Source of the DNA: Planctomycetales bacterium
Lineage (GTDB): Bacteria > Planctomycetota > Phycisphaerae > SM23-33
Length of the DNA: 64,000 nucleotides
Reading direction: 5' to 3'
Assembly: GCA_030612725.1 (NCBI GenBank)
Contig: JAUWNJ010000010.1
Coordinates: 32,837 to 96,836 of the forward strand
Positions 477 through 57,150 of this stretch are shown here, in pieces (position 1 is the stretch's first letter; each line of letters opens with the position of its first letter). The position numbers and the translations under genes were made by a program. The notes under the pieces were generated by a model. It saw only the letters and a list, made by a program, of their open reading frames with translations, was not told the DNA's origin and did not search any database.

Positions 477-2546
477 CTACTTCTCGGAAATCATCTTCTT
501 CGCCTTTGCCGCCAGGGGCGATTCGGGGTAATCCTTGACGATTCGCCGAAAAGTCTTTCGGGCAAGGTCGGTCTTTCGCATTTTGGTGTAGGCTTCGGCT
601 GACAGCATCAGCAGTTCCGGCGCGTAGTGGCTGCGGGGATTGACACGGATGAGTATCTGGGCCTGACGGGCGGCTGCGGCGTATTGCTTCCGCGACGTCG
701 CCAGTTTCGCGCGGATTAACGTCGAAAAACCCTCCAGTTTGTCGGTGGGAAATTCGTATTCCCATTTGTCCAAAGCCCCGGCTGCATCGTCAAACAATCG
801 CCGACGGAGGTAATCTTCGGCATGGCGGGCCAGGTCGCCTTTTCGGACGGCGGGTTTCATTTTCGCATCGCCTTTGACCGCCCCGGATGCTCGGTACGCT
901 TCGGCGGCCTTATCGTAATTTCCGCGATGGCGCCAGACGTCGCCGATACCGATTTTCGCTTCGCGGATTGCGCGATGCGTTGTCAGTGCGGCGTATTTTT
1001 TAATAGCGCGGGCGAAAATGCTCATAGCTCTGTCGATTTTATCATTTTCCAGGGCGATCTTTCCGGCGCGCACAAGCATCTCGGCTGACACGTCCGGCGC
1101 ATCGGTCATCTTCGCCGCTTTGACCAGTGCATCGACGGCCCGCCCCGGAGCGTCGGCGGTACGGATAAGCGCATCGGCGTAAATCCCCATCGCATCGCGC
1201 AGGACCGCCGAGGGCGCCTTGTTGCGAGCGATGAGTGCGTCGCCCGCGCGAATAACCGCCTCTTTCAGACCCGCGCGTTTGAAAATGATAACAGCCCCGG
1301 TGATGTCGCGCGAATCCGAAGCGGTAAAATCATAACCGGCTGCGATGCGTGCGTAATTGGCGGGAGGGTCCATGAGATTTTTTGCAACCTTATCCCACCG
1401 GCGCGATACGTATATGACGTTGGTCCGCGTGAGCGTCTGTGAGCCGATTTTAACCCTCAGCGTTACCTTATATCGCCCGTCGCGAAGATATACATGCTCG
1501 CATTTTTTATCCGAGGACTTCTGCCCGTCGCCGAAATCCCAATGGTATTGAACCTTGCCGCCGAATCGCCCCTTCAGCATGGCTTCAAATACGTACCGCT
1601 GAAAGTAGCGATTCGCCAGAAAGGTCTCCCCGGCGTGGCGCGGTATGAAATCGGCGTGCCGGCTCCGGCCATATCGTTCCAGGATACCGGGGGTCGCCCG
1701 ACGAACCGGCGCGAAGGCGCTGGGCGGAATTTTCCAAAGTCGCCGACCATTGGGCGTGCGCCATGCAGCCACAACCACCGGATTACCACCGGTGCCGACG
1801 TGATAGACCTTCAATTCGTGCAGGCCTTTGGAAAGTTTTATCCGTCCCTGCCTGACCGCACGACGCTGAGGACGATGATGCCGGCCATTGGAAACGATCA
1901 CCTTACCATCGACCAGCAGGAAAGAGGCGTCCCGGCTGGTGGTGGAAAAAATGTATTGCCCGTCGGCGGGGCAAACGAGATAACCCGTGAAGATGCTGCA
2001 TATCCGGTTCTGCGGGCCGAAGGGATTATAACCAAGGAAAATATCCCTGCGGAAGTCCCTGCCGAGCAGTTTTTTGCTTCGCTCGAAGATTCGTTGGACT
2101 TGCTTGAAATTCGCAATTCCCCCGCCGGTGTAGGCCCACGTCTCCATCAGCACGCCACGACGGATTTGCAGTTCCTGTTTCGGCGCCTCGGCCTTGGGAT
2201 TTCCGAAATAGAGGAAGTATTTTTTGATTGGCGGCTTCAGTTCGAACGCGACGCGGACGCTGTTGCCGGGGCCGACCATCAGCACTCGATGAGGCAGTAG
2301 CGTTCCGGTGGCGGTGGTTACGCGGATGTCGCGCCCGTCCGCGGCGGTAAGCCCGCCGGTCGGCATGGTAACGACGGCGATATCCCGGCCTGTTTTCAGA
2401 TTGGTCTTCGAAACGTCGCTCACCGTTACAGCCCGACGGTACGGCCAGTTATAATTCCACCAGCCTCCCTGCGCAGACACCGGCGCAGCCGCCGCCAGCA
2501 CCGCCGCAACGATGCAAATACGTAATGACCTGAAAACACTTTCCAT
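477..2546 (-). CDS. Secreted multidomain protein: signal peptide, DUF2341-like N-terminal region, PA14-like segment, PKD-like motif (YHWDFGDG), C-terminal TPR-like repeats
   Basis: 689-aa ORF with a hydrophobic N-terminal signal (AAVLAAAAPVSAQG), a GxxxCPADGxYxF PA14-like motif, YHWDFGDG, and an alanine-rich repeat-like C-terminus. Confidence 0.55.
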   Translation of the reverse strand: MESVFRSLRICIVAAVLAAAAPVSAQGGWWNYNWPYRRAVTVSDVSKTNLKTGRDIAVVTMPTGGLTAADGRDIRVTTATGTLLPHRVLMVGPGNSVRVAFELKPPIKKYFLYFGNPKAEAPKQELQIRRGVLMETWAYTGGGIANFKQVQRIFERSKKLLGRDFRRDIFLGYNPFGPQNRICSIFTGYLVCPADGQYIFSTTSRDASFLLVDGKVIVSNGRHHRPQRRAVRQGRIKLSKGLHELKVYHVGTGGNPVVVAAWRTPNGRRLWKIPPSAFAPVRRATPGILERYGRSRHADFIPRHAGETFLANRYFQRYVFEAMLKGRFGGKVQYHWDFGDGQKSSDKKCEHVYLRDGRYKVTLRVKIGSQTLTRTNVIYVSRRWDKVAKNLMDPPANYARIAAGYDFTASDSRDITGAVIIFKRAGLKEAVIRAGDALIARNKAPSAVLRDAMGIYADALIRTADAPGRAVDALVKAAKMTDAPDVSAEMLVRAGKIALENDKIDRAMSIFARAIKKYAALTTHRAIREAKIGIGDVWRHRGNYDKAAEAYRASGAVKGDAKMKPAVRKGDLARHAEDYLRRRLFDDAAGALDKWEYEFPTDKLEGFSTLIRAKLATSRKQYAAAARQAQILIRVNPRSHYAPELLMLSAEAYTKMRKTDLARKTFRRIVKDYPESPLAAKAKKMISEK

Positions 2547-2611
2547 GACAGACTCTTATGCTTTAACGCAACCGGTCCGACAAAGTTGCTTGCGGATAAT
2601 AACTACACGGA

Positions 2612-3509
2612 GAATATTGAATATTGTGCATAGCACCGCGTAGCGATACTACGTACCACTACGTGGAACAAAGAATTTTGAATTTCGAAGTATAAAGAAA
2701 AAGAAGAATGGTAACGGTGCGACATTTTATTACCCTTTTTCACCATTCCTTTTGGCTGCGCCTAGCCCCGTTCAGTCTTCTTCTTGTTCATTGATCCAAA
2801 TAACGGGCAGGAAAAGATATTTACCTGCCTTGCCTGTCCCCGGTTCAAATGCCAGTTCATCTTGGTGATCTTTCAGAACCTTGACGCCCCAGCTTTTCGC
2901 TTTCCTTGCCGTTTGCCTATCTGGAGTCAAAAACCCTTTCAAAGCCGCCGGTGGAACGACGCATCGCTCCCCACTGTCCTTTTTGAGGAACTCGACCATA
3001 TCAAACCTGTCCCAAGAGTTTGCCAAACTTGGTGATATGTCCCACCAGTAGAGGAAAGGCATATCGTCATACCTTCTACTCCGTTTGACCAGAACCGCTT
3101 CTTTTTCTTCAAGCACAGAGCTTTCTTCCATCTTGGATTCCGCATGACATTGCTGGTGGCACTCCGCGTGCATCAGGACGCAATTGTTTTTGCTGTATCC
3201 TTTTGTCTGATCCAAGCGGTGCAAGTGAACGTTTCGTCTGGTCTCAAAGGGCTTTTCACAGTAATGACATGGCTTGTTGGCATCGAACAGTTCTCGCTTG
3301 ATGCCGGTCTTCGTCTTCCGCTCGTCGAGTCCAAGCCTGGCGAAGACATACCGGTTCGCGTACCACCACTTGTCTGTGTCGCCATCGGCATGTTCGACGA
3401 TGAGTTTGCGAGTCTGTTCGAGAATTTCTTCGGGCTTCATGATGCTTGTCCTTTTTCTTCTTTTTTTAAACTTCGAAATTCAAAATTCTCTGTTCAATAT
3501 TCAATATTC
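2612..3509. mobile_element. Terminal-inverted-repeat-bounded cassette carrying a single HNH nuclease gene
   Basis: Left end has module A gaatattgaatattg (2612-2626) and module B agaattttgaatttcgaagt (2672-2691). Right end has exact reverse complements B' (3470-3489) and A' (3495-3509). The interior is visibly AT-richer than the flanks. Confidence 0.5.
2772..3440 (-). CDS. HNH endonuclease domain protein
   Basis: Translation contains CHYCEKPF...HLHRLDQTKGYSKNNCVLMHAECHQQCH, a canonical HNH/zinc-finger nuclease motif, in a lower-GC gene. Confidence 0.7.
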   Translation of the reverse strand: MKPEEILEQTRKLIVEHADGDTDKWWYANRYVFARLGLDERKTKTGIKRELFDANKPCHYCEKPFETRRNVHLHRLDQTKGYSKNNCVLMHAECHQQCHAESKMEESSVLEEKEAVLVKRSRRYDDMPFLYWWDISPSLANSWDRFDMVEFLKKDSGERCVVPPAALKGFLTPDRQTARKAKSWGVKVLKDHQDELAFEPGTGKAGKYLFLPVIWINEQEED

Positions 3510-3526
3510 ATCTTTTCCCTACTTCA

Positions 3527-5023
3527 TCATTCTCCCTGAATCGCAACCTTGGCGATCCTGAAGCATCCCACCGTTGAGATGATCCCGAAGAATTCGTCGG
3601 GGTTGCCGTCGCCGGTCGTCAGCATGATATGTCCGGCATCGTATCCGTTCAGGGCAGCATCGAAGCCGACCCATTTTCCGCCGATCAGTACGCGATTCCA
3701 TGCGTGAGGCCCGAAGACGCCCTTCCGCCCGCCGAAACTTTCGACGTAGGCCACGCCCGTTACGACCTGCGCGGGGATTCCGACTGCCCGGCAAAGAGCG
3801 GCTGCCAGGACGGCATGCTCGGAGCAGTCGCCCTGCCGGCTGGCGGCGACCTCAACGGCGGATGCGTAACCGACGGAAAGGTCTTTCTTGTTGATGTATT
3901 TTCGGACGAACGCCTCGATTTTCCTAGCGGCTTTGAGCGTATCCTTCGTGTCCCCGACGGCCTGGCGGGCGAGGGATTTTATCTTCTTGTCGTCGCACTG
4001 GATAAACCGCGTCGCCTTCAATGCCGACAGTGCGGTCTTGTCCTTTCCCTTGTACGGAAACGCAGCGCCGACTTCGGCTTTGACGGGGCAGACCGTTACA
4101 ACAACCGTGCCGGTTTTGAGGTTGCGGACCGTCTGGTTGTCTGTGGCGGGAAAATGCAGCTTCGCTTTATCGGCCGGTTTGCCGGGTTGAGCAATCGGCT
4201 CAAGCGTATATGTTATCGACCTGGCCGACGCGACGTTCTTGAGCGGTTGTGGCGGCGAAAGCAGAAACCGGGCAAAGAAATCCGCAACGTCGTTTTTGCT
4301 CAGCGCGAACACCCGGCTGCAGGCGACGATTTCGAGAGTCATGCCCATCGCGGGAAGAACGACCTTCTGGTCGTGGAAATTCCTGTCCACGTAGTTCGTC
4401 GCGGTTACGCCCTTTATGGTGGTCTTGACTTCAGTCAGCGGAACGACGCGCCCCAGCAGGTCAACGTTTTTCGTAGGCCCGACGAGCCGTTCTTCATCCT
4501 CTGCCTTGAGAGTCAGAGACGTGAATATCTTTGCGGTATATTTGGTTCCCTCGGTCAGACCCTTTTTCTTCGCCAGGATTCGCAGACCTTCGCTCATCAG
4601 CGCCCCTTCGGGCCAGTCTATGACACGTTTCTGAACACTTTGTCCGGTGGTGATTGTAACGTTGACTTTCCCGGCCGGAGTAACGGCGCCTTCAATCGCC
4701 ATAGCCATAATGCCAATGTCCTGGACGGACTTGAAGCCTATCGGCTTGCCGTCGGTGGTCTCGATGTCGGTGTAGCTCAGCCGGGCGGTTATGGCAACGG
4801 CTCCCCGGCTGATTGTGAATACCTTTGTTTCGGAAGTGGTTACCTTACCGTCGGAGACCTGGCGAGTGCGTTTGCTGTGCCCGACTTTCTTTCCATCTAT
4901 AAAGATGGCGAAATACTGCGTTTCGGTCTTTGCCGCAGGTTTCGTCGTTGCCCGTGGCGCAGCCGCTGCGACAACCGTCATAAAAATCACCGCCAGTACA
5001 CATAAGAATCTGCGTTTTTGCAT
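3527..5023 (-). CDS. Secreted transglutaminase-like (Cys-His-Asp) domain protein
   Basis: N-terminal signal peptide. C-terminal GDCSEHAVLAAALCRAVGIPAQVVTG ... GPHAWNRV matches the transglutaminase-like core. Confidence 0.65.
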   Translation of the reverse strand: MQKRRFLCVLAVIFMTVVAAAAPRATTKPAAKTETQYFAIFIDGKKVGHSKRTRQVSDGKVTTSETKVFTISRGAVAITARLSYTDIETTDGKPIGFKSVQDIGIMAMAIEGAVTPAGKVNVTITTGQSVQKRVIDWPEGALMSEGLRILAKKKGLTEGTKYTAKIFTSLTLKAEDEERLVGPTKNVDLLGRVVPLTEVKTTIKGVTATNYVDRNFHDQKVVLPAMGMTLEIVACSRVFALSKNDVADFFARFLLSPPQPLKNVASARSITYTLEPIAQPGKPADKAKLHFPATDNQTVRNLKTGTVVVTVCPVKAEVGAAFPYKGKDKTALSALKATRFIQCDDKKIKSLARQAVGDTKDTLKAARKIEAFVRKYINKKDLSVGYASAVEVAASRQGDCSEHAVLAAALCRAVGIPAQVVTGVAYVESFGGRKGVFGPHAWNRVLIGGKWVGFDAALNGYDAGHIMLTTGDGNPDEFFGIISTVGCFRIAKVAIQGE

Positions 5024-6281: not shown

Positions 6282-6315
6282 CGGAGTTTCTGCGTCGAAT
6301 TTTATATAACAAAAC

Positions 6316-6343
6316 TTGTCAATGATTGTTATTGGTGTATAAT
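6316..6343 (+). promoter_or_regulatory. Sigma70-like promoter TTGTCA-16-TATAAT upstream of parDE
   Basis: ttgtca at 6316-6321 and tataat at 6338-6343 with a 16-nt spacer, about 50 nt upstream of the parD start in an AT-rich intergenic region. Confidence 0.5.
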
Positions 6344-6391
6344 TAGAATTGAGCAGAGGAATGTTCAAGTAATTAGTTTCGGGGTGATATT

Positions 6392-6688
6392 ATGAACGTA
6401 TCGTTGACAAGCAAATTGGAAAAACTTGTAAAACAGAAGGTGAAATCCGGTCTGTACAATTCCGCCAGTGAGGTGATTCGGGAGAGTTTGCGCCTTTTGG
6501 AAGAGCGAGACAGGATTAACAAAATCCGCATCAGGGAACTTCGGAAAGAAGTTGCCGAAGGGATAGGGCAACTGAGGCGCGGCGAATTTACGGAAGTTAC
6601 GGACGATTCTCTGTCAAAGACGTTTGGCGAAATCAAGGCCCGAGGCCGTAAGAAACTGTCCGCCCGGAAGAAAAATCGCACCGCATGA
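6392..6688 (+). CDS. parD: Type II antitoxin, ParD/RHH family
   Basis: 98-aa protein (KLEKLVKQKVKSGLYNSASEVIRESLRLLEERD) with a ribbon-helix-helix antitoxin pattern. Its stop overlaps the downstream toxin start (ATGA). Confidence 0.75.
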   Translation: MNVSLTSKLEKLVKQKVKSGLYNSASEVIRESLRLLEERDRINKIRIRELRKEVAEGIGQLRRGEFTEVTDDSLSKTFGEIKARGRKKLSARKKNRTA

Positions 6689-6972
6689 CTCGCTATCGAA
6701 TCACAAAACAGGCCGAGGAGGACCTGGAGGCAATTTGGCTTTATATTGCCGAAGATAATCCTTCTGTTGCGGATCGAGTGCTGGATACGTTTCAGGAGAA
6801 GTTCCGCCTGTTGGGTGAACATCCACAAATGGGCAGAAGCCGGAAGGACCTCGGAGAAACCCTACGGAGCCTTCCTGTTGAGAAGTACGTAGTGTTCTAT
6901 CGCTACCGTGATGAATGCGTGGAGATCATTCACGTCATACATGGTGCGCGTGACATCCCGTCACTTTTGTGA
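6685..6972 (+). CDS. parE: Type II toxin, ParE/RelE family
   Basis: 95-aa protein with ITKQAEEDLEAIWLYIAEDNPSVADRV...VVFYRY...IIHVIHGARD, the ParE/RelE pattern, translationally coupled to parD. Confidence 0.75.
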   Translation: MTRYRITKQAEEDLEAIWLYIAEDNPSVADRVLDTFQEKFRLLGEHPQMGRSRKDLGETLRSLPVEKYVVFYRYRDECVEIIHVIHGARDIPSLL

Positions 6973-6982
6973 TGCGCCCTGC

Positions 6983-22437: not shown

Positions 22438-22639
22438 TTTCGTGCTCCTTTCATGGGTTACTCATCCGGGCAGCCTGGATGACCGCCCCTGCCTTATATT
22501 TGACGCATAACTCCTCACGTTGGTCTCATAAAAATAAAAAAACTCGCAAGAAAGCCCAATGGATACAGGTACCGTAGCATGGCCGTCTCGGCCATGATTT
22601 CACGGGCGATGCGTAGCATCACTACGTGAGACGCCCGCG

Positions 22640-24163: not shown

Positions 24164-24170
24164 AATAATC

Positions 24171-24290
24171 AGCAGTCAGCAATCAGCAAAAGATAAAAAA
24201 ACGACGAAGAAACAAATCAGCAATCAGCAGTCAGCAATCAGCGAATCAGTGTTCTTTTTCATCTTTTGCTGACAGCTGATTGCTGATAGC
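24171..24290. repeat. Intergenic composite repeat: tandem cagcaatcag units with an imperfect long inverted repeat (tcagcaatcagcaaaagat ... atcttttgctga(cagctg)attgctga)
   Basis: Read directly from the sequence. Arms are at 24177-24195 and 24262-24287. The interior contains repeated aatcagca units. Confidence 0.5.
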
Positions 24291-24301
24291 TGACCGCTCT
24301 T

Positions 24302-26004: not shown

Positions 26005-26112
26005 CGGCCCGGTGGAACAACAACGATTATCTTCGACTTTCGGATTGGTCGCTCTGCGGTCTTGATTCGTCCGGCAGCGTTATTACAATACGCGATTCGA
26101 CAAAATGAATGG

Positions 26113-28770
26113 ATGACAGACATGAGCGAACTGCACAGAACTGTATTGTACGACCGGCATGTCGCCGGTGGTGGAAAAATCGTCGATTTCGCCGGATGGG
26201 AGATGCCGCTGCAATACGCCGGCGGGATCGTGGCTGAACACCTCGCCACGCGCAAAGGCGCAGGCCTGTTCGACGTCTCGCACATGGGGCGATTCATCTT
26301 CGGCGGCGAAGGCGCGACGCGATTTCTCCAGCACGTCCTGACCAACAACGCCGAGGCCCTGGAGACCGGGCAGGCGCAGTACACGATGATCCCCAACGCC
26401 GACGGCGGGGCAGTCGATGACGCGTACCTGTACCGCTTCGTCGAGGATGAATACCTCCTCGTCGTCAATGCCGCCAACCGACAAAAAGACTGGGACCATT
26501 TCTCCGAACACCTCGCCGAATTCGACGACGTGAAAATGACCGATGAGTCCGAAGAAATCGCAATGATCTCGCTCCAAGGCCCGCTGGCAGGGGCGATACT
26601 CTCCGGCGTTATTGATTCGGGAGCACTTCCAGAACCGACGCGGAACGAACTGGGAGCCGTCGTAATCAACGGCGTCGAGGTCCGTCTCGCCCGAACCGGA
26701 TACACGGGCGAACCGGTCTGCTTCGAACTGTTCGTCGAAAGCCAAGCCGCCGGGAAAATATGGGACCTGCTGATTAATCGCGGCGCAGAACCCGTCGGCC
26801 TCGGGGCGCGCGACACTCTTCGGCTGGAAGCAGCCCTGCCGCTCTACGGACACGAACTGGGACTCGAACCGGACGGAAAAGAAATTGCCGTATTCTCCTG
26901 CCCGTTGGCGCGATTCGCTGTGAGTTTCTCGCCGCTGAAGGGCGATTTTATCGGAAAAGACGCTCTGGCCAAACAGCATGAAGCCTTCATGAAAATCCTC
27001 TCCGAAGATTATTCGTTGATAGCGAACCTGCCGCGACGGATCGTTCCGGTTGCGGTGGTCGGTAAGGGTATCGCCCGTCCGCCGGCAGGGGCGTTCGTCG
27101 GCGACAAGCACGTCGGATTCGTTACCAGTGGAACGGTGGTTCCATACTGGCAGGTCGAGGGCGAAGGTCTGTCGAGCAGAATAACCGACCAAAAGGCGAT
27201 GCGGTCTATCTGCATGGTTATGCTCGACTGCGACCTGCGCGAGGGCGACCGGATTGAAATCGAAATTCGCGGCAAGCAGGTCGAAGCCGTTATCGTCCCG
27301 TTCCACCTCCGCAGCGAGGCTCCGCCTTACGCAAGGGCGATACTGCACGACCACGCATTGGCGATCCACGAAGACCGCACACGTCAGGCCGGCCCGACCA
27401 AGGCGCGCGACCTGCTTGAAAAGGCGATTGAAAACACCATCTGGCGACAGGCAGAGTGCATAAACCTCATCCCGTCCGAGCAGACGTTCTCGCCCATGGC
27501 CAGGATGCTGTCGATCATGGACCCCGCCTTCCGATACGCCGAGCACAAACCGCTCAAGGCCTTCTACGAAGCGAACGTCTTCTACTACCAGGGGACGGAT
27601 TTCATCGAGGCCGTTGAGACCTCGCTGGAAGCCGAATTGCGGAAATTCCTTGGCTGTGCGGAAGTCGAGACCCGCGCCGTCAGCGGGCAGATGGCGAACG
27701 CCGTCGTCTTCAGCGCGATGGTCGATTACATCAACCGGACCGACCGGAAAAGCCCGCCGAGAAGAATCGCAAGGGTGATGAACAATCACATCATCAAGGG
27801 CGGGCACCTCAGTTCCCAGCCGATGGGCGCGATGCGCGACTTCATCGCACACGACCCGAAAACGGAAAAACCGGCAATAACCAACTTCCCCGTCCTGCCC
27901 GAAAACCCGTATAAAATCGACGTGCCCGCCTGCCGGGAACTGCTGGAGCGATACAGACCCGAACTGATTATCTTCGGTAAGAGCGTCGTTCTGCACCCCG
28001 AACCGGTGGCTGAGATTCGGGCGTTCGCCGATGAGATGGGTATCGATACCGTAATCATGTACGACATGGCCCACGTGCTCGGACTCGTCGGCCCGCACTT
28101 CCAGGAACCTTTCGCCGACGGCGCCGACATCGTTACCGGCTCGACGCATAAGACATTCTTCGGTACGCAGCGGGGAATCGTCGCGTCCAACTACGCCGAG
28201 ACCGATGAGCGGTACAATCTCGCCGAGGCGATTCGTCGCAGGACGTTCCCCGGCTCGGTCAGCAATCATCATCTCGGAACGATGGTCGGGCTGCTGATGG
28301 CTACCTACGAGATGAACCATTTTAAGGATGAGTACCAGCCGAAGGTTATCGCCAACGCAAAGGCCTTCGCCGCTGCGCTGAAACGCTGCGGTATGGACGT
28401 AGCCGGTGATGCGGACGTCGGATATACGCAGACGCACCAGGTAGTTGTTAATGTCGGTTACAGCCGGGCCACCGAGATAGCGAGAAAACTTGAGGACAAC
28501 AATATAATCGTCAACTACCAGGCCGCACCAAATGAAGAAGGTTTCACCGCAGCCGGTGCGATTCGCATGGGCGTCTCGGAGATGACCAGGTTCGGAATGG
28601 GCGAGGGCGATTTTGAAACAGTTGCACAACTCATCGCCGATGTGGTAAATAACGACAAGCCGGTAAAGGCTGAAGTGAAATCGTTCAGGGGCGGATTCAC
28701 CGACCTGAAGTTCCGCTTCGGCGGCGAAGAATTTGACGGAATTATGGAAAAACTGCACGGGCTTGTATAG
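26113..28770 (+). CDS. gcvT: Glycine-cleavage T protein (aminomethyltransferase) fused to a C-terminal serine-hydroxymethyltransferase-like domain
   Basis: N-terminus YDRHVAGGGKIVDFAGWEMPLQYAGGIVAEHLATRKGAGLFDVSHMGRF matches GcvT. The C-terminal half carries SHMT-like motifs IPSEQTFSP (ENFTS), YYQGTDFIE (YYGGCE), VSGQMAN (HSGSQAN) and GSTHKTFFG (TTTHKT). An alternative start is at 26122. Confidence 0.7.
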   Translation: MTDMSELHRTVLYDRHVAGGGKIVDFAGWEMPLQYAGGIVAEHLATRKGAGLFDVSHMGRFIFGGEGATRFLQHVLTNNAEALETGQAQYTMIPNADGGAVDDAYLYRFVEDEYLLVVNAANRQKDWDHFSEHLAEFDDVKMTDESEEIAMISLQGPLAGAILSGVIDSGALPEPTRNELGAVVINGVEVRLARTGYTGEPVCFELFVESQAAGKIWDLLINRGAEPVGLGARDTLRLEAALPLYGHELGLEPDGKEIAVFSCPLARFAVSFSPLKGDFIGKDALAKQHEAFMKILSEDYSLIANLPRRIVPVAVVGKGIARPPAGAFVGDKHVGFVTSGTVVPYWQVEGEGLSSRITDQKAMRSICMVMLDCDLREGDRIEIEIRGKQVEAVIVPFHLRSEAPPYARAILHDHALAIHEDRTRQAGPTKARDLLEKAIENTIWRQAECINLIPSEQTFSPMARMLSIMDPAFRYAEHKPLKAFYEANVFYYQGTDFIEAVETSLEAELRKFLGCAEVETRAVSGQMANAVVFSAMVDYINRTDRKSPPRRIARVMNNHIIKGGHLSSQPMGAMRDFIAHDPKTEKPAITNFPVLPENPYKIDVPACRELLERYRPELIIFGKSVVLHPEPVAEIRAFADEMGIDTVIMYDMAHVLGLVGPHFQEPFADGADIVTGSTHKTFFGTQRGIVASNYAETDERYNLAEAIRRRTFPGSVSNHHLGTMVGLLMATYEMNHFKDEYQPKVIANAKAFAAALKRCGMDVAGDADVGYTQTHQVVVNVGYSRATEIARKLEDNNIIVNYQAAPNEEGFTAAGAIRMGVSEMTRFGMGEGDFETVAQLIADVVNNDKPVKAEVKSFRGGFTDLKFRFGGEEFDGIMEKLHGLV

Positions 28771-28774
28771 CAAA

Positions 28775-28925
28775 GATAGCAGAATTACAGGGATTTTTGT
28801 TTTTGCTGAAAAAAGAAGAAGAAAAAGGAGAAAGATAGCGGGATTATGGGGATTACTGGATTATAGGGATTTTCTTTTTTGTTTTTGTCCTCTAATCTCA
28901 AAATCCCTGTAATCCTGCTATTCTG
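28775..28925. repeat. Structured intergenic element: about 20-nt inverted repeat (agcagaattacagggatttt / aaaatccctgtaatcctgct) enclosing purine-rich tandem gggattat-like units
   Basis: Read directly from the sequence between the gcvT-SHMT stop and gcvH. Confidence 0.4.
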
Positions 28926-28970: not shown

Positions 28971-29360
28971 ATGGTTCCTGCTGAATTGCGATACGCAAAG
29001 AGTCACGAATGGGCGAAAATGGATGGCGGGACGGTAACAGTTGGTATAACCGCCTTCGCTGCTGAACAACTCGGCGACGTTGTCTTTCTTGAGTTGCCTG
29101 CCGTCGGCGAGAGCGTCGAGGCTGGGACACCCTTCGGCGTGGTCGAGTCGGTCAAGGCTGCGGTCGATTTAAATTCGCCCGTCAGCGGCGAGGTAATCGA
29201 GGTCAATGATGACCTGACCGAAGACATGGAACTGCTGGGCAAAGACTCCTACGGGTCAGCCTGGATGATAAAGGTAAAAACCGCCGGCGACGCCGATTTC
29301 CAAAGCCTCATGTCGGCTGACGAATACGAAAAATTCCTCGAAGCCGAAGAAAAGCATTAA
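28971..29360 (+). CDS. gcvH: Glycine-cleavage H protein (lipoyl carrier)
   Basis: 129 aa with ...ESVKAAVDLNSPVSGEV, the lipoyl-lysine motif. Confidence 0.85.
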   Translation: MVPAELRYAKSHEWAKMDGGTVTVGITAFAAEQLGDVVFLELPAVGESVEAGTPFGVVESVKAAVDLNSPVSGEVIEVNDDLTEDMELLGKDSYGSAWMIKVKTAGDADFQSLMSADEYEKFLEAEEKH

Positions 29361-35134: not shown

Positions 35135-35157
35135 TATCCTGTCCGACTTTAATGATG

Positions 35158-35260
35158 GGTGCCATGCTTTCGCCCGCAGCGCAGCGGAGGGCGTAAGCAT
35201 GTTGTGGCGTAAATCATGCCTACACGCTTCGCTGCGCTGCGCGTGAAGGCATGGCACCCT
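35158..35260. repeat. About 28-nt imperfect inverted repeat (gggtgccatgctttcgcccgcagcgcagcg / cgctgcgctgcgcgtgaaggcatggcaccc) forming a long intergenic hairpin
   Basis: Read directly from the sequence between gcvPB and lpd. Confidence 0.5.
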
Positions 35261-35277
35261 GCACTAGGGATACTGTT

Positions 35278-36651: not shown

Positions 36652-38334
36652 ATGTCGAAATTGATTTATTCAGACCTCGGACGCAAATCCTACGAATCGG
36701 CGTTGGTGATTCAACGCCGGTTACTGGAAGAGGTAAAGGCCGACGAGAACTCACCGGCGTATCTCCTGCTCCTCGAGCACGACCCGCCGGTTATAACGCT
36801 TGGTCGGAGCGCCGAGAGCGAGCATCTCCTTGCCTCGCCGGAGCGCCTGGAGCGCGAGGGCGTCGAGGTCCATAAATCCGCTCGCGGCGGGGATGTAACC
36901 TACCACGGTCCGGGACAACTGGTGGGATACCCGATTATGCAAGTTGCAAGTCGGGGAAGGAGCGTCCACGGGTACGTCCGCGACCTGGAAGAAGTCCTCA
37001 TCCGCCTGTTGGGACGCTTCGGCCTGAAGGGCCGACGGCGTAAGGGCCTCACCGGCGTATGGGTCGGCGACGAGAAAATCGCCGCTATAGGCGTAGCCGT
37101 CAGTCGATGGGTCGCCTGGCATGGGTTCGCGCTGAACGTCTCGACGGACCTGTCGCATTTCGATTTCATCGTGCCCTGCGGCATCGACGGGTGCAAAGTA
37201 ACCAGCATGGAGAAACTTCTCGCATCAGAAGTCTCAATTCAGGAAGTGAAACAACAGTTGGTAGAATGTCTGGTCGAGGTGTTCGGATTCGAACCTGTAG
37301 GCTGGAACGGAGCGAAGCGGAGTCCCACCTCAATTTCTACTCCGTCCCAGCCTACAAGTCGCGGACGGTTTCCTGTGTGGTTGCGTCGGCGTATTCCGCC
37401 TGCCGGCAGGAGCGCCGAGGTGCGGCGACTACTGGCCGATTTGAAACTCGAAACGGTCTGCTCCAGTGCGAACTGCCCGAACATGTCGGAATGTTTCGGT
37501 CGCGGCACTGCTACATTTATGATCCTCGGAAACACCTGCACCCGCTCATGCCGATTCTGCGCGGTTCCGACCGGAAAACCCGCAATGCCGCGAGATGACG
37601 AACCGGCCGCAGTGGCAGAGGCATCCGAGCGGCTTGGCCTGAAGCACGTCGTAATTACTTCAGTAACCCGCGACGACTTGCCCGACGGCGGGGCAGGACA
37701 CTTCGCCAAAACCATCCGCGCCGTCCAGGCCCGCCTTTCGCAAACCACAATAGAAGTCCTCACGCCCGACTTCGGTGGCGACGAAGCCGCAATTGACACC
37801 GTCCTTGCCGCCCGGCCTGACGTTTTCAACCACAATATCGAAACCGTTCCGCGTTTGTATTCGCATGTCCGCCCGCAGGCCCGGTACAAACGCAGCCTCG
37901 ACGTGCTCAAATATGCAAGCAGCAGGCTGGCCCGGGGTGGAGCAGGTAGGCTGGGCCAGAGCGGAGCGGAGTCCCACCTTCCTTATGCAAACGAACAAAA
38001 TGCAGAACAAAGGTGGGACTCCGCTTCGCTCCGGCCCAGCCTACGGAAACTCTTTACCAAGAGCGGTCTGATGGTGGGTCTGGGCGAAACTATCGACGAA
38101 ATCCGCGACGTGATGCGGGATTTGCGCAAGGCAGGGTGCAACATTCTGACCATCGGCCAATACCTCGCGCCGTCGCCGGAGCACGTACCGATAGCCCGAT
38201 TCGTCGAACCGTCCGAATTTGACGCCATGCGAACCGAAGCGCTGGCGATGGGCTTTACCGCCGTCGCCGCCGGACCCTTCGTTAGAAGCAGTTACCGCGC
38301 TGAAGAGGTTTTGAAAAAGCAAGCGGCCTTATAA
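36652..38334 (+). CDS. lipB-lipA: Fused octanoyltransferase (LipB) and lipoyl synthase (LipA) single ORF, carrying in-frame palindromic element insertions
   Basis: N-terminus matches LipB (VITLGRS...[19 protein letters not shown]). The C-terminus matches LipA ([29 protein letters not shown] ... [22 protein letters not shown] ... [11 protein letters not shown]). The junction and an internal loop contain copies of a repeat element. Confidence 0.65.
37946..38044. repeat. 99-nt palindromic REP/MITE-like element (35-nt arms gtaggctgggccRgagcgRagcggagtcccacctt) inserted in-frame inside the LipA-coding region
   Basis: Arms at 37946-37980 and 38010-38044 are reverse complements with 2 mismatches. 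The encoded extra peptide is roughly [37 protein letters not shown], located between conserved LipA blocks. Confidence 0.6.
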
Positions 38335-52249: not shown

Positions 52250-52288
52250 GGTATCACCGGGCTTTCGATTATCCCTTGATCGCGCTGT

Positions 52289-52426
52289 GTTCGCATCTGC
52301 GCGCGCAAACGCGAACGTAAAAATCGGGGAGATGAAAAATTCCAAAAAAACTTTTCCCAAGGCCGCCAAGGACTTATGCCGTCGCTATCCGTTTTGTGTT
52401 CGCCTTTGCGCGCGCAAACGCGAACG
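52289..52426. repeat. Two copies of the palindromic motif gttcgcNtYtgcgcgcgcaaacgcgaac (52289-52316 and 52399-52426)
   Basis: Read directly. Each copy is itself a hairpin (gttcgc/gcgaac arms around gcgcgcgc). Confidence 0.5.
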
Positions 52427-52446
52427 CAAAAGATAATATAGAGGAC

Positions 52447-52591
52447 AGATAGGGACCTAGGGACTTGGGACTAGAAGATAGGGCCTAGGGCGTAGGGCAT
52501 AGGGCGTAGGGCGTAGGGAATGCGTAGCATCACTACGTGAAAACAGATGAACCAGTCAACCAGTCAACCAGTCAACTAATCAACCATCAAC
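52447..52591. repeat. Composite repeat array (right): gatagggacctagggacttgggactag plus tagggc tandem units, then gcgtagcatcactacgtga, then accagtcaacc tandem units
   Basis: Reverse-complement arrangement of the array at 43153-43302. Confidence 0.6.
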
Positions 52592-55671: not shown

Positions 55672-55717
55672 TGCACTGCTCCTTTTTTCAATTCAAGATG
55701 AACGTTTTACAGAATTA

Positions 55718-55808
55718 ACCACAAAGGGCACAAAGAACACAAAGGCAATAAAGAATATTTCAATTCCGTTCTTTGTGTTCTTTGTGCCCTTTGTGGTTCG
55801 TTTTTTTA
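55718..55808 (+). terminator. 27-bp perfect inverted repeat (accacaaagggcacaaagaacacaaag / ctttgtgttctttgtgccctttgtggt) with a 25-nt loop, followed by tcgttttttta
   Basis: Read directly. Lies between the tRNA-Asp 3' end and the DegT start. Its orientation as a terminator for the + strand is puzzling because no + strand gene lies upstream. Confidence 0.45.
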
Positions 55809-55810
55809 AA

Positions 55811-55884
<74 letters not shown>

Positions 55885-56049
55885 ACGCGTACTTCCCTTT
55901 TACCCACGAGGGAACCAACCCTTATACCGCAATAGACAGGGAATTGTCAATAGCGATTTGACCGAAAATCATAGTTTCTGCATCTTGCCGTTTTGCGACC
56001 ATGCCGGTATACTCCACAATTCGGATACTAAACAAAAAGGGTGCAAACA

Positions 56050-57150
56050 ATGAAGATTGCGGTAATTGGCGGCGACGGGACAGGCCCGGAAGTGGTGGCG
56101 GAAGGTCTGAAGGTTCTCAAAGCAGTGGCTGGGAAGGTTGGCTTCGAGTACGAGACGAAGGATTTTAATGTCAGCGGCGACAGGTACCTCGCCAATGGTG
56201 GCGACCCGGAAAAACCCTCCATCCCCATCATCGACGAGGACGAAATCGAAGAACTCAAAACCTTCGACGCGATTTATCTCGGGGCTGTCGGGCATCCCGA
56301 CGTAGCGCCCGGTATTCTGGAAAAGGGGCTGCTGCTGCGTCTTCGTTTCGCGCTGGACCAGTACGTCAATCTCCGCCCGGTAATGCTCTATCCCGGCGTA
56401 CCGTGTCCGCTGGTCGGTAAAGGCCCCGACGACATCGACTTCGTGGTTATCCGCGAGAACACTGAGGGCATCTACACCGGAATGGGCGGCATCCAGTACA
56501 AAGGCACGCCGCAGGAAGTTTCAACGCAGGTCAACTGCACGACGCGGTTCGGCGCCGAGCGGGCCATTCGTTACGCCTTCGAAACCTGCAAAAAACGCAA
56601 CGCCAAAAAACGCCTCACGCTGGTCCATAAAACAAACGTCCTGACCTTTGTCGGTCAGACCTGGTTCAACGCCTTCGAAGCCGTAGCCAAAGAATATCCG
56701 GACATCGAAACCGATTACAACCACGTGGACGCCTGCTGCATGTGGTTTATCAAGAACCCGGAGTTTTACGACGTAATCGTTACGGACAACATCTTCGGCG
56801 ACATAATCACGGACCTCGGCGCGATGATCCAGGGCGGAATGGGCGTAGCCGCAGGCGGAAACATCAATCCCAACGGCGTCAGCATGTTCGAGCCTATAGG
56901 CGGCTCTGCCCCGAAGTACACGGGCAAGAACGTCATCAACCCCATCGCCGCCATCGCCGCGATGGCGATGCTGCTGAGCGAGACGGGGCAAAACACCGGC
57001 GACGCCAAACTCGCCGATGCGGGTCGGCGCGTCGAATCGGCCATAAGGTCCGTTACATCGAAGATGAAATCGCAGTCGGCCGGAAAAATGGGCTTCACCA
57101 CCACCGAAATAGGCGATCTTGTAGCCGATGCCGTCGCAAAGACAGAATGA
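56050..57150 (+). CDS. Isocitrate/isopropylmalate dehydrogenase-family enzyme (3-isopropylmalate or tartrate dehydrogenase-like)
   Basis: [17 protein letters not shown]-terminus, NLRP, and the [19 protein letters not shown]-terminal signature. Confidence 0.7.

Follow-up and report, generated by a model that had tools for sequence, protein, structure and literature searches.

Does a gene that lies between perfect inverted repeats have to belong to a transposon? The question is raised by a locus in a 64,000 nt stretch of DNA from a Planctomycetales bacterium (contig JAUWNJ010000010.1, positions 32,837-96,836; hereafter the window), in which a single gene for a 222-aa HNH nuclease is bracketed by two inverted arms and stands between a transglutaminase-like gene and a PA14/PKD/TPR gene. 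Here we document the anatomy of this arm–gene–arm block, its exchange for another sequence in this intergenic slot, its age, the selection acting on its arms and the compact relatives of the arms found elsewhere. The interpretation that we favor, with moderate confidence, is that the arms are the two halves of one intergenic palindromic element similar to repetitive extragenic palindromic (REP) sequences and miniature inverted-repeat transposable elements (MITEs), that a conserved single-copy HNH gene occupies its normally short loop, and that the stem is still under selection, probably at the RNA level. Metagenome and genome loci used for comparison are designated by L-numbers; all other coordinates are those of the window.

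Two Inverted Arms Around One Gene

The first-pass annotation of the window had described two sequence modules on one side of the 222-aa open reading frame (ORF) and their exact reverse complements on the other, and both the positions and the sequences were borne out. Module A (GAATATTGAATATTG) is found at 2612-2626 (+) and 3495-3509 (-) and module B (AGAATTTTGAATTTCGAAGT) at 2672-2691 (+) and 3470-3489 (-), all four copies being exact, with a distance between A and B of 45 nt in the left arm and 5 nt in the right arm. No further copy of either module was found in the 64 kb window with 2-3 mismatches allowed, and approximately none would be expected from shuffled sequences. The inverted repeat is longer than first noted, since it extends inward through a purine-rich tract (2666-2711 versus 3450-3495; 46 nt, 83% complementary) and each arm reaches ~60 nt once this tract is counted; the purine tracts of the two arms have diverged from one another. 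The arms are composed of 7-nt GAAnnnn units, and the purine/pyrimidine tract provides the inner stem. When joined by a short linker, the arms fold in silico into a stem of about 58 bp (-78.8 kcal/mol, z -14.7), on which a 40-nt insert in one arm forms a side hairpin. In gene orientation, the upstream arm stops 9 nt short of the HNH start codon, and its purine tract includes an AAGGA Shine-Dalgarno-like motif.

The HNH ORF is the only sizeable ORF of the interior with homologues or a family match, as the remaining ones overlap it in other frames or on the opposite strand. The interior is AT-richer than its surroundings (GC content 0.47-0.52 versus 0.56-0.63 in the flanks). This had been observed at first pass and holds true, yet it is a property of the gene rather than a sign of recent import, because HNH homologues at all nine loci examined follow the GC content of their hosts at a constant offset of 4-8% below it. 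An independent metagenome contig, L005, carries a syntenic ortholog whose protein is 87% identical, surrounded by the same arms (49 nt, 92% complementary). The inverted repeat is therefore not an assembly artefact.

Exchange for an Ancestral Hairpin

Comparison of orthologous transglutaminase–PA14 intergenic regions, which had been suggested as a check, demonstrated that the inverted-repeat block is a discrete presence/absence unit that is missing in four related genomes. Empty sites were located by a genome scan with the transglutaminase-like protein (L042 and L043) and by look-ups of PA14 homologues (L065, L066, and L068), L066 being identical to L043 across the spacer shown. The transglutaminase–PA14 pair is kept in L042, L043/L066, L065, and L068, with PA14 proteins 89, 80, 77, and 74% identical to that of the window across the four genomes, and the upstream genes are also kept in L042, L043, and L065. 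None of them has the HNH gene at this site. A further possibility considered at first pass, that the HNH gene would be conserved in synteny without the repeats, was not what we observed: the syntenic relatives that lack the repeats lack the gene as well.

The spacer of ~150 nt at the empty sites contains, in 4/4 cases, a conserved hairpin built from GCAGGGAT-type units, with T-rich sequence in its loop and a U-rich tract after it. This terminator-like hairpin maps to L042:8543-8625, L043:8497-8585, L065:3349-3431, and L068:705-789; it shows compensatory G/A swaps in both arms, two such swaps separating L042 from L043, and the number of its 9-nt units varies. No hairpin of the GCAGGGAT type was found in the window. 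The left junction of the exchange is exact, as AAGAT(T) directly precedes the old hairpin at the empty sites and, in the window and L005, the GAAT arm. Similarity returns on the right side ~13 nt past the arm, within the conserved PA14 leader, and this point marks the limit of the replaced segment. In a quartet analysis of gain versus loss, the window, L005, and L042 formed an unresolved trichotomy. The arm–HNH–arm block is nevertheless the derived state, because the four genomes bracketing these three lineages share one hairpin. These data show that the block was swapped in for an ancestral terminator-like hairpin and that its left edge falls precisely on the end of the arm.

Age of the Block and Selection on the Arms

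The synonymous divergence (dS) between the window and L005 is 0.58 for the HNH gene, 0.65 for the transglutaminase gene, and 0.47 for the PA14 gene. This agreement between the HNH gene and its neighbors indicates that the block is old and has been in place since the lineages of the window and L005 split. No recombination or co-conversion tract was detected between the two, and the block shows identity values that also occur in the PA14 gene. The ratio of nonsynonymous to synonymous divergence (dN/dS) of the HNH gene is 0.13, a sign of purifying selection which indicates that the protein is functional.

The arms differ between the two genomes at only 5/122 positions, 3/62 of them in the upstream arm. 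By comparison, the raw synonymous difference (pS) is about 0.40 (binomial P about 1e-20), and 13/69 positions differ in the adjacent non-coding DNA (Fisher P 0.0014), so that the arms are ~8-fold better conserved than synonymous sites and 4-fold better than the non-coding DNA beside them. Conserved far beyond neutral expectation, they are maintained by selection. The nature of the changes is also informative. One is compensatory, an A-to-G change in the upstream arm being paired with a T-to-C change in the downstream arm (A-U to G-C), and each of the three one-sided changes yields a G·U pair in the sense RNA. The duplex is more stable in sense than in antisense in both genomes (-62.7 versus -60.1 and -70.3 versus -65.5 kcal/mol). 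Because of the compensatory change and the G·U pairs in sense RNA, the pattern leans toward a role of the arms at the RNA level, on the sense transcript, which we regard as suggestive with two genomes compared.

Such conservation makes it extremely unlikely that the arms are a non-functional relic, either of an inverted duplication caused by gene insertion or of a broken, decaying hairpin. Decay could account for the divergence of the inner purine tracts (83% complementary) and for the fact that two different small elements have been inserted into the arm or the 3′ untranslated region (3′ UTR) in the two lineages. However, it would not leave arms ~8-fold and 4-fold more conserved than the two reference classes over a dS of 0.58, nor would it explain why the arm sequence already exists as a family elsewhere.

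Compact Relatives of the Arms in Other Genomes

A metagenome scan with module B alone returned 34 loci. In no fewer than 8 distinct loci, an A-like GAATATYGAA..GAAC segment comes before B, although this segment was outside the query (36/40 identity in L017), and at these loci the arm pairs with an adjacent complementary arm to form a compact intergenic hairpin, with unrelated flanking genes. A 62-nt version was seen in three ~95% identical copies with unrelated flanks, one at a locus common to L012/L017/L018 and two in L035, and one contig has two hairpin copies 170 nt apart. For the gene beside the L012 hairpin, the best matches among named organisms are in Planctomycetota/Sedimentisphaerales. 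The contigs with compact GAAT hairpins were all without an HNH protein gene. Within related metagenomes, these sequences therefore have the attributes of REP/REPIN- or MITE-like elements, being imperfect palindromes with a stable hairpin that are intergenic, dispersed, and placed between unrelated genes, and the element is of a kind that seems to be common in the Phycisphaerae/Sedimentisphaerales-like lineage of the source. The first-pass annotation had conceded that its transposon interpretation would suffer if the modules turned up next to many unrelated genes; they do so in part, as HNH-free compact hairpins at those at least 8 loci.

In the window, GAAT-type units occur at the two HNH arms only. 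The window does hold other compact intergenic hairpins with arms of 7-9-nt periodic units (24168-24298, 28776-28921, 52286-52431, and 55703-55812).

Alternatively, the arms may be two separate protein-binding or promoter-like DNA motifs in convergent orientation, one driving or regulating the HNH gene and the other either driving an antisense transcript over the 3′ end of HNH or regulating PA14, in which case the compact hairpins would be back-to-back operators. We consider this unlikely, although part of the evidence is well accommodated by it: conservation lies in the sequence itself, beyond complementarity; the 40-nt motif is present in unrelated intergenic regions, the L012 copy being situated in a divergent promoter region; and both arms end in a purine-rich Shine-Dalgarno-like tract followed by ATG, the downstream arm leading into a 28-codon ORF on the plus strand from 2707. 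However, a promoter scan of the locus revealed no sigma-70-type promoter (the accompanying terminator scan gave a single weak candidate, which overlaps the start codon), the small antisense ORF is broken by a 148-nt insertion in L005, and the motif is not found in the rest of the 64 kb window. Moreover, a pure DNA-site model does not predict that all one-sided changes should produce G·U in sense RNA and that a compensatory change should accompany them.

A Narrow and Long-Resident HNH Family

The HNH protein combines a helical N-terminal region with an HNH/zinc motif (C58, C61, H74, N86, C94, H95, and H99) and a beta-rich C-terminal domain of unknown function. In Pfam it gave only a sub-threshold HNH match (14.7 bits versus a cut-off of 21.4), and NCBIfam and PADLOC gave no match of any kind. 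Despite the weak Pfam score, the HNH assignment is settled by three lines of evidence: C58, C61, H74, N86, C94, and H95 are invariant and H99 is present in at least 90% of sequences in a 31-homologue alignment; a profile search of the Protein Data Bank (PDB) matched a group II intron maturase in its HNH (En) domain (E 5.9e-5); and the PHROG families matched were HNH and endonuclease VII. The protein thus has the features of the HNH superfamily, with CxxC...CxxH zinc ligands, the catalytic His, Asn, and His, and a beta-beta-alpha fold, and its fold matches HNH nucleases only, including structure-specific ones. Between the window and L005, divergence of the gene is greatest at 3170-3350 (codons about 30-90, the catalytic motif), with 72% nucleotide identity versus 91-93% in the C-terminal half, and in the L005 protein a Pro replaces the nearly invariant His72.

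The family is narrow. In the 90% database it comprises 226 clusters, which come almost entirely from Planctomycetota/Phycisphaerae metagenomes, and only 29 representatives among 1.84 billion reach E 1e-30; the two halves of the protein are also found separately. A search of 2.9 million viral contigs returned neither relatives of the protein nor module B. The gene is single-copy. Seven other HNH loci lie in seven different gene neighborhoods, with protein identities of 84% (L006), 80% (L007), 78% (L001-3), 71% (L004), 63% (L063), about 60% (L062), and about 55% (L056), the overall range being 50-84%. At these seven loci we found neither a flanking inverted repeat nor a consistent adjacent hairpin, and the repeats are therefore not part of a general HNH gene unit. 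L006 was checked for a split hairpin and has a half-arm of CACAAAG units upstream of the HNH gene, but the complementary downstream arm was not found there. The synonymous divergence of the gene, which equals that of its neighbors, and its GC content, which follows the host, argue for a long-resident gene and not an active transposon.

The HNH gene of L006 lies just downstream of an Iso_dh gene, whose 74%-identical window ortholog (56041-57150) has no adjoining HNH gene, making it a reciprocal empty site. The same homologue adjoins a HicAB toxin-antitoxin pair (L006:2603-3210), and in L007 the homologue is located ~150 nt downstream of a tRNA-Met-like gene (L007:3775-3850). From these settings, the HNH gene tends to sit among small accessory genes.

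A presence/absence polymorphism at one precise site, within the trichotomy of the window, L005, and L042, could also be produced by a free-standing homing-type gene. The HNH protein would cut the empty allele, for example an extruded GCAGGGAT hairpin, and the block would be copied in by recombinational repair, with the flanking genes as homology and the arms as part of the cassette. HNH homologues do occupy different sites in related genomes, including the reciprocal empty site at Iso_dh, and T4 mobE is a known example of a free-standing HNH homing gene; like the gene studied here, such genes are lone HNH genes between conserved genes and missing from that site in relatives (PMC2790892). The locus differs from these genes in several respects, and we judge homing to be quite unlikely. 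Sequence identity does not rise around the block, and the gene has the dS of its flanks, so neither recent spread nor co-conversion is apparent. The composition of the gene is adjusted to each host; in one population it is fixed at the same site on 14 contigs; and it is not phage-borne, having no relatives in the viral contigs. In addition, homing offers no reason for 60-nt inverted arms.

The Transposon Interpretation

The first-pass annotation described the arms as terminal inverted repeats (TIRs), which normally bound a unit with a transposase, and the HNH gene as the only cargo; a transposon interpretation would make the HNH protein the mobilizing enzyme. One aspect of this does fit the data, as the inserted block is bounded precisely by the inverted repeats (AAGAT| at the left indel junction adjoins the outer end of the arm). 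However, no element-encoded transposase (DDE, HUH, serine, or tyrosine recombinase) was found in the block, and searches of Pfam, NCBIfam, PADLOC, and PHROGs assigned the HNH protein to no transposase family. No target-site duplication is present, the flanks reading ...AAAAGAT | element | TCCGTGT... without a direct repeat. Some transposon families make no such duplication, and its absence alone is weak evidence. There is no second arm–HNH–arm unit in the 64 kb window, and all other loci with HNH homologues are without the repeats. The idea of a TIR transposon with HNH cargo is further opposed by the occurrence of the arm sequence elsewhere without HNH and by a dS equal to that of the neighboring genes. 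With no transposase, no target-site duplication, no copies elsewhere in the window, and repeats that are not tied to the HNH family in general, the transposon interpretation is not supported. A literature search for TIR transposons carrying HNH alone returned only casposons, ISC/IscB, and unrelated work.

Other mobile or structured elements were considered and rejected. An integron cassette does not fit, since the ends of the arms lack RYYYAAC/GTTRRRY cores and the arms are paired around the gene, whereas an attC forms one compact site that follows its gene. An invertible segment was discarded on the grounds that the orientation of the gene does not differ between the two genomes and there is no recombinase nearby. 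An Rfam scan of 2300-3800 at E<=1 gave chance-level matches only.

A more elaborate version of mobility would have the HNH protein recognize and mobilize the GAAT hairpin, with the block as the master copy, either in the way that a REP-associated tyrosine transposase (RAYT) relates to REP/REPINs or as an autonomous element with gene-less derivatives. HNH nucleases cut DNA but are not known to have strand-transfer activity. This counts against such a scheme, as do the seven other HNH loci without a flanking repeat or consistent adjacent hairpin, the compact-hairpin contigs that all lack the HNH gene, the 64 kb window without further GAAT hairpins, and the missing target-site duplication. On the other hand, the gene stands between inverted copies of a sequence found scattered through related organisms in the form of compact hairpins, the sequence conservation of the arms is far above neutral, the indel boundary is at the arm end and the swap resembles a single event, and the protein matches an endonuclease VII-type PHROG family as well as structure-specific HNH nucleases. 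Being single-copy, long-resident, vertically inherited, and under purifying selection, the gene also behaves as RAYTs have been described to do; a REPtron is a RAYT gene (an IS200/IS605-like HUH-Y1 transposase) flanked by its cognate REP/REPINs (PMC3337134). Unlike a REPtron, the locus has an HNH nuclease instead of an HUH tyrosine transposase, and the association with the repeat was observed at a single locus and does not extend to the protein family as a whole. On balance, mobilization of this kind is improbable. The related proposal that the HNH family is the dedicated partner of a hairpin-repeat family, an HNH-based counterpart of RAYT/REPIN, or that the block is an HNH-mobilized element bounded by inverted repeats, with the compact GAAT hairpins as gene-less offspring of this master copy, likewise strikes us as quite improbable.

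A Proposed Split Palindrome With a Gene in Its Loop

We therefore return to the interpretation of the arms as two halves of one palindromic element with the HNH gene in its loop. Before the divergence of the window and L005, the arm–gene–arm block displaced the terminator-like hairpin that had originally separated the transglutaminase-like gene from the PA14 gene. The minus strand carries all three genes (transglutaminase-like, 3527-5023; HNH, 2772-3440; PA14/PKD/TPR, 477-2546), and a read-through transcript would for this reason carry both arms. The arms could then close a stem of ~58 bp enclosing the HNH mRNA and sequestering its ribosome-binding site, and the stem would act as a structure for RNA processing, for stability, or for limiting the translation of a potentially harmful nuclease, by analogy with REP sequences, RNase III stems, and hok. 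Both this RNA-level role and the relative order in which the gene arrived in the loop and the element arrived in this slot are inferred rather than observed.

Several observations weigh against this interpretation. The compact GAAT-type hairpin is absent from the 64 kb of the window and from 15 kb + 11 kb of its closest relatives, so that a GAAT hairpin family outside the HNH locus, while indicated by the sequences of related metagenomes, is still unproven within the source genome. The block is present in two genomes only, and the covariation is thin, amounting to one compensatory and three wobble changes; the wobble pattern alone would have about a 1 in 8 chance of arising. The sequence conservation of both arms exceeds what a 58-bp stem should need, which hints at a sequence-specific recognition factor. 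Finally, the swap is simplest if the arms and the gene came together as one unit, and this favors a mobile unit over later insertion of the gene. The features of the locus are compiled in Table 1.

Table 1. Features of the HNH locus, listed in the direction of transcription except for the flanking regions, which are given last.
Feature	Position	Strand	Remarks
Upstream arm (gene orientation)	3450..3509	-	GAATATTGAATATTG (A), AACAG, AGAATTTTGAATTTCGAAGT (B), purine tract TTAAAAAAAGAAGAAAAAGG
HNH gene, 222 aa	2772..3440	-	HNH (beta-beta-alpha-Me) nuclease family
HNH 3′ untranslated spacer, stop codon to downstream arm	2712..2771	-	~17% divergent from L005, less conserved than the arms
Downstream arm, inner part	2667..2711	+	AACAA, B, purine tract ATAAAGAAAAAGAAGAATGG; in mRNA sense, pyrimidine tract then B′
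Secondary insertion, 40 nt, in downstream arm	2627..2666		TGCATAGCACCGCGTAGCGATACTACGTACCACTACGTGG; own small hairpin, CGTAG-N5-CTACG family
Downstream arm, outer part (module A)	2612..2626	+	A-to-G change in L005 present in both arms (compensatory)
PA14/PKD/TPR gene leader	2547..2611	-	AGCAACTTT..TTGCGTTAAAG.ATAAGAGTC.GTC ATG; conserved whether or not the HNH block is present
Transglutaminase stop codon (3527-3529) and short spacer ending AAGAT	3510..3529	-	Left junction of the swap

Secondary Insertions and Other Hairpins

The filler in the left arm had been taken for a secondary hairpin insertion, and this proved correct. The 40-nt insertion is specific to the window, the orthologous L005 arm being without it, and the CGTAG-N5-CTACG core occurs 3 times in the window versus 0.08 expected. 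The copies of this small hairpin family, with a core of GCGTAGC-N3-ACTACGT, are at 2638-2655, 22611-22628, and 52522-52539; the two distal copies have an identical 19-nt core, and the copy at 52522 comes after a run of TAGGGCG repeats. The 148-nt insertion in the HNH 3′ UTR of L005 (L005:2763-2922) is palindromic and is not present in the window. Small palindromic elements evidently nest into one another in the lineage of the window and L005.

Among the larger hairpins of the window, the one at 28776-28921 has arms of CAGGGAT-type units and a purine/pyrimidine core of the AAAAAAGAAGAAGAAAAAGG type, like the HNH arms. It is situated between a gcvT-fusion gene (26062-28770) and gcvH (28971-29360), in what is likely an operon, and resembles the empty-slot hairpin of L042. 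The hairpin at 55703-55812 abuts a tRNA-Asp gene (55810-55885, minus strand). Additional long intergenic hairpins are found at 35150-35266 and 37297-38044, and each hairpin has its own sequence; at least 3 of five long hairpins in the window have arms of 7-9-nt tandem units (ATCAGCA, CACAAAG, and others).

A second small-gene indel lies 3 kb from that of the HNH gene. At 6282-6982, a ParD/ParE toxin-antitoxin pair (6392-6688 and 6685-6972, +) is preceded by a promoter-like TTGTCA-N17-TATAAT site; this block of ~700 nt is missing in L042, where PgpA abuts the 888-aa gene.

Comparison With Known Systems and Implications

Insertion sequences such as IS1397 and ISKpn1 lodge in the loops of REP palindromes and of bacterial interspersed mosaic elements (BIMEs). 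The HNH locus resembles these cases in having a coding unit in the loop of an extragenic palindrome, the arms of which appear as an outer inverted repeat. Unlike the HNH block, which contains only the HNH gene and has no ends of its own, IS1397 and ISKpn1 bring their own transposase, TIRs, and target-site duplications. Long-range stems between the 5′ and 3′ parts of an RNA are exemplified by the RNase III processing stems of rRNA operons and by the fold-back inhibition of hok mRNA. There, too, complementary segments hundreds of nucleotides apart enclose a whole RNA or ORF, and in hok the start of a harmful product is hidden, whereas for the HNH locus the analogy draws on anatomy, strand-specific G·U changes, and conservation.

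The favored interpretation likens the locus to REP/BIME/REPIN sequences and MITE-like hairpins, which are short imperfect intergenic palindromes, present also within operons, that are dispersed at unrelated loci, come in several sequence families per lineage, nest into one another, and are tolerated or used as RNA hairpins (PMC3116915, PMC3337134). The HNH locus departs from them in that its halves lie about 740-850 nt from each other and flank a protein gene, its arms have 7-nt periodic units, and its repeat has neither another copy in the available 64 kb nor a linked RAYT. What is new is thus a gene nested in a split extragenic palindrome, within a kind of palindrome that is already known.

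The case illustrates that a gene between perfect inverted repeats need not mean a transposon, as it can be a hairpin repeat with a gene in its loop. It also draws attention to the little-studied genomes of Phycisphaerae, which have many families of intergenic hairpins with periodic arms that are exchangeable at one slot and apparently selected, and to a narrow, uncharacterized two-domain HNH family whose genomic address shifts between close relatives even though its behavior is that of a resident gene. Should the HNH protein be a partner of the GAAT hairpins, it would represent a new enzyme class for the biology of REP-like repeats. If instead the arms regulate or process the mRNA of the nuclease, the locus would be a simple natural case of a gene insulated inside a long-range RNA stem.

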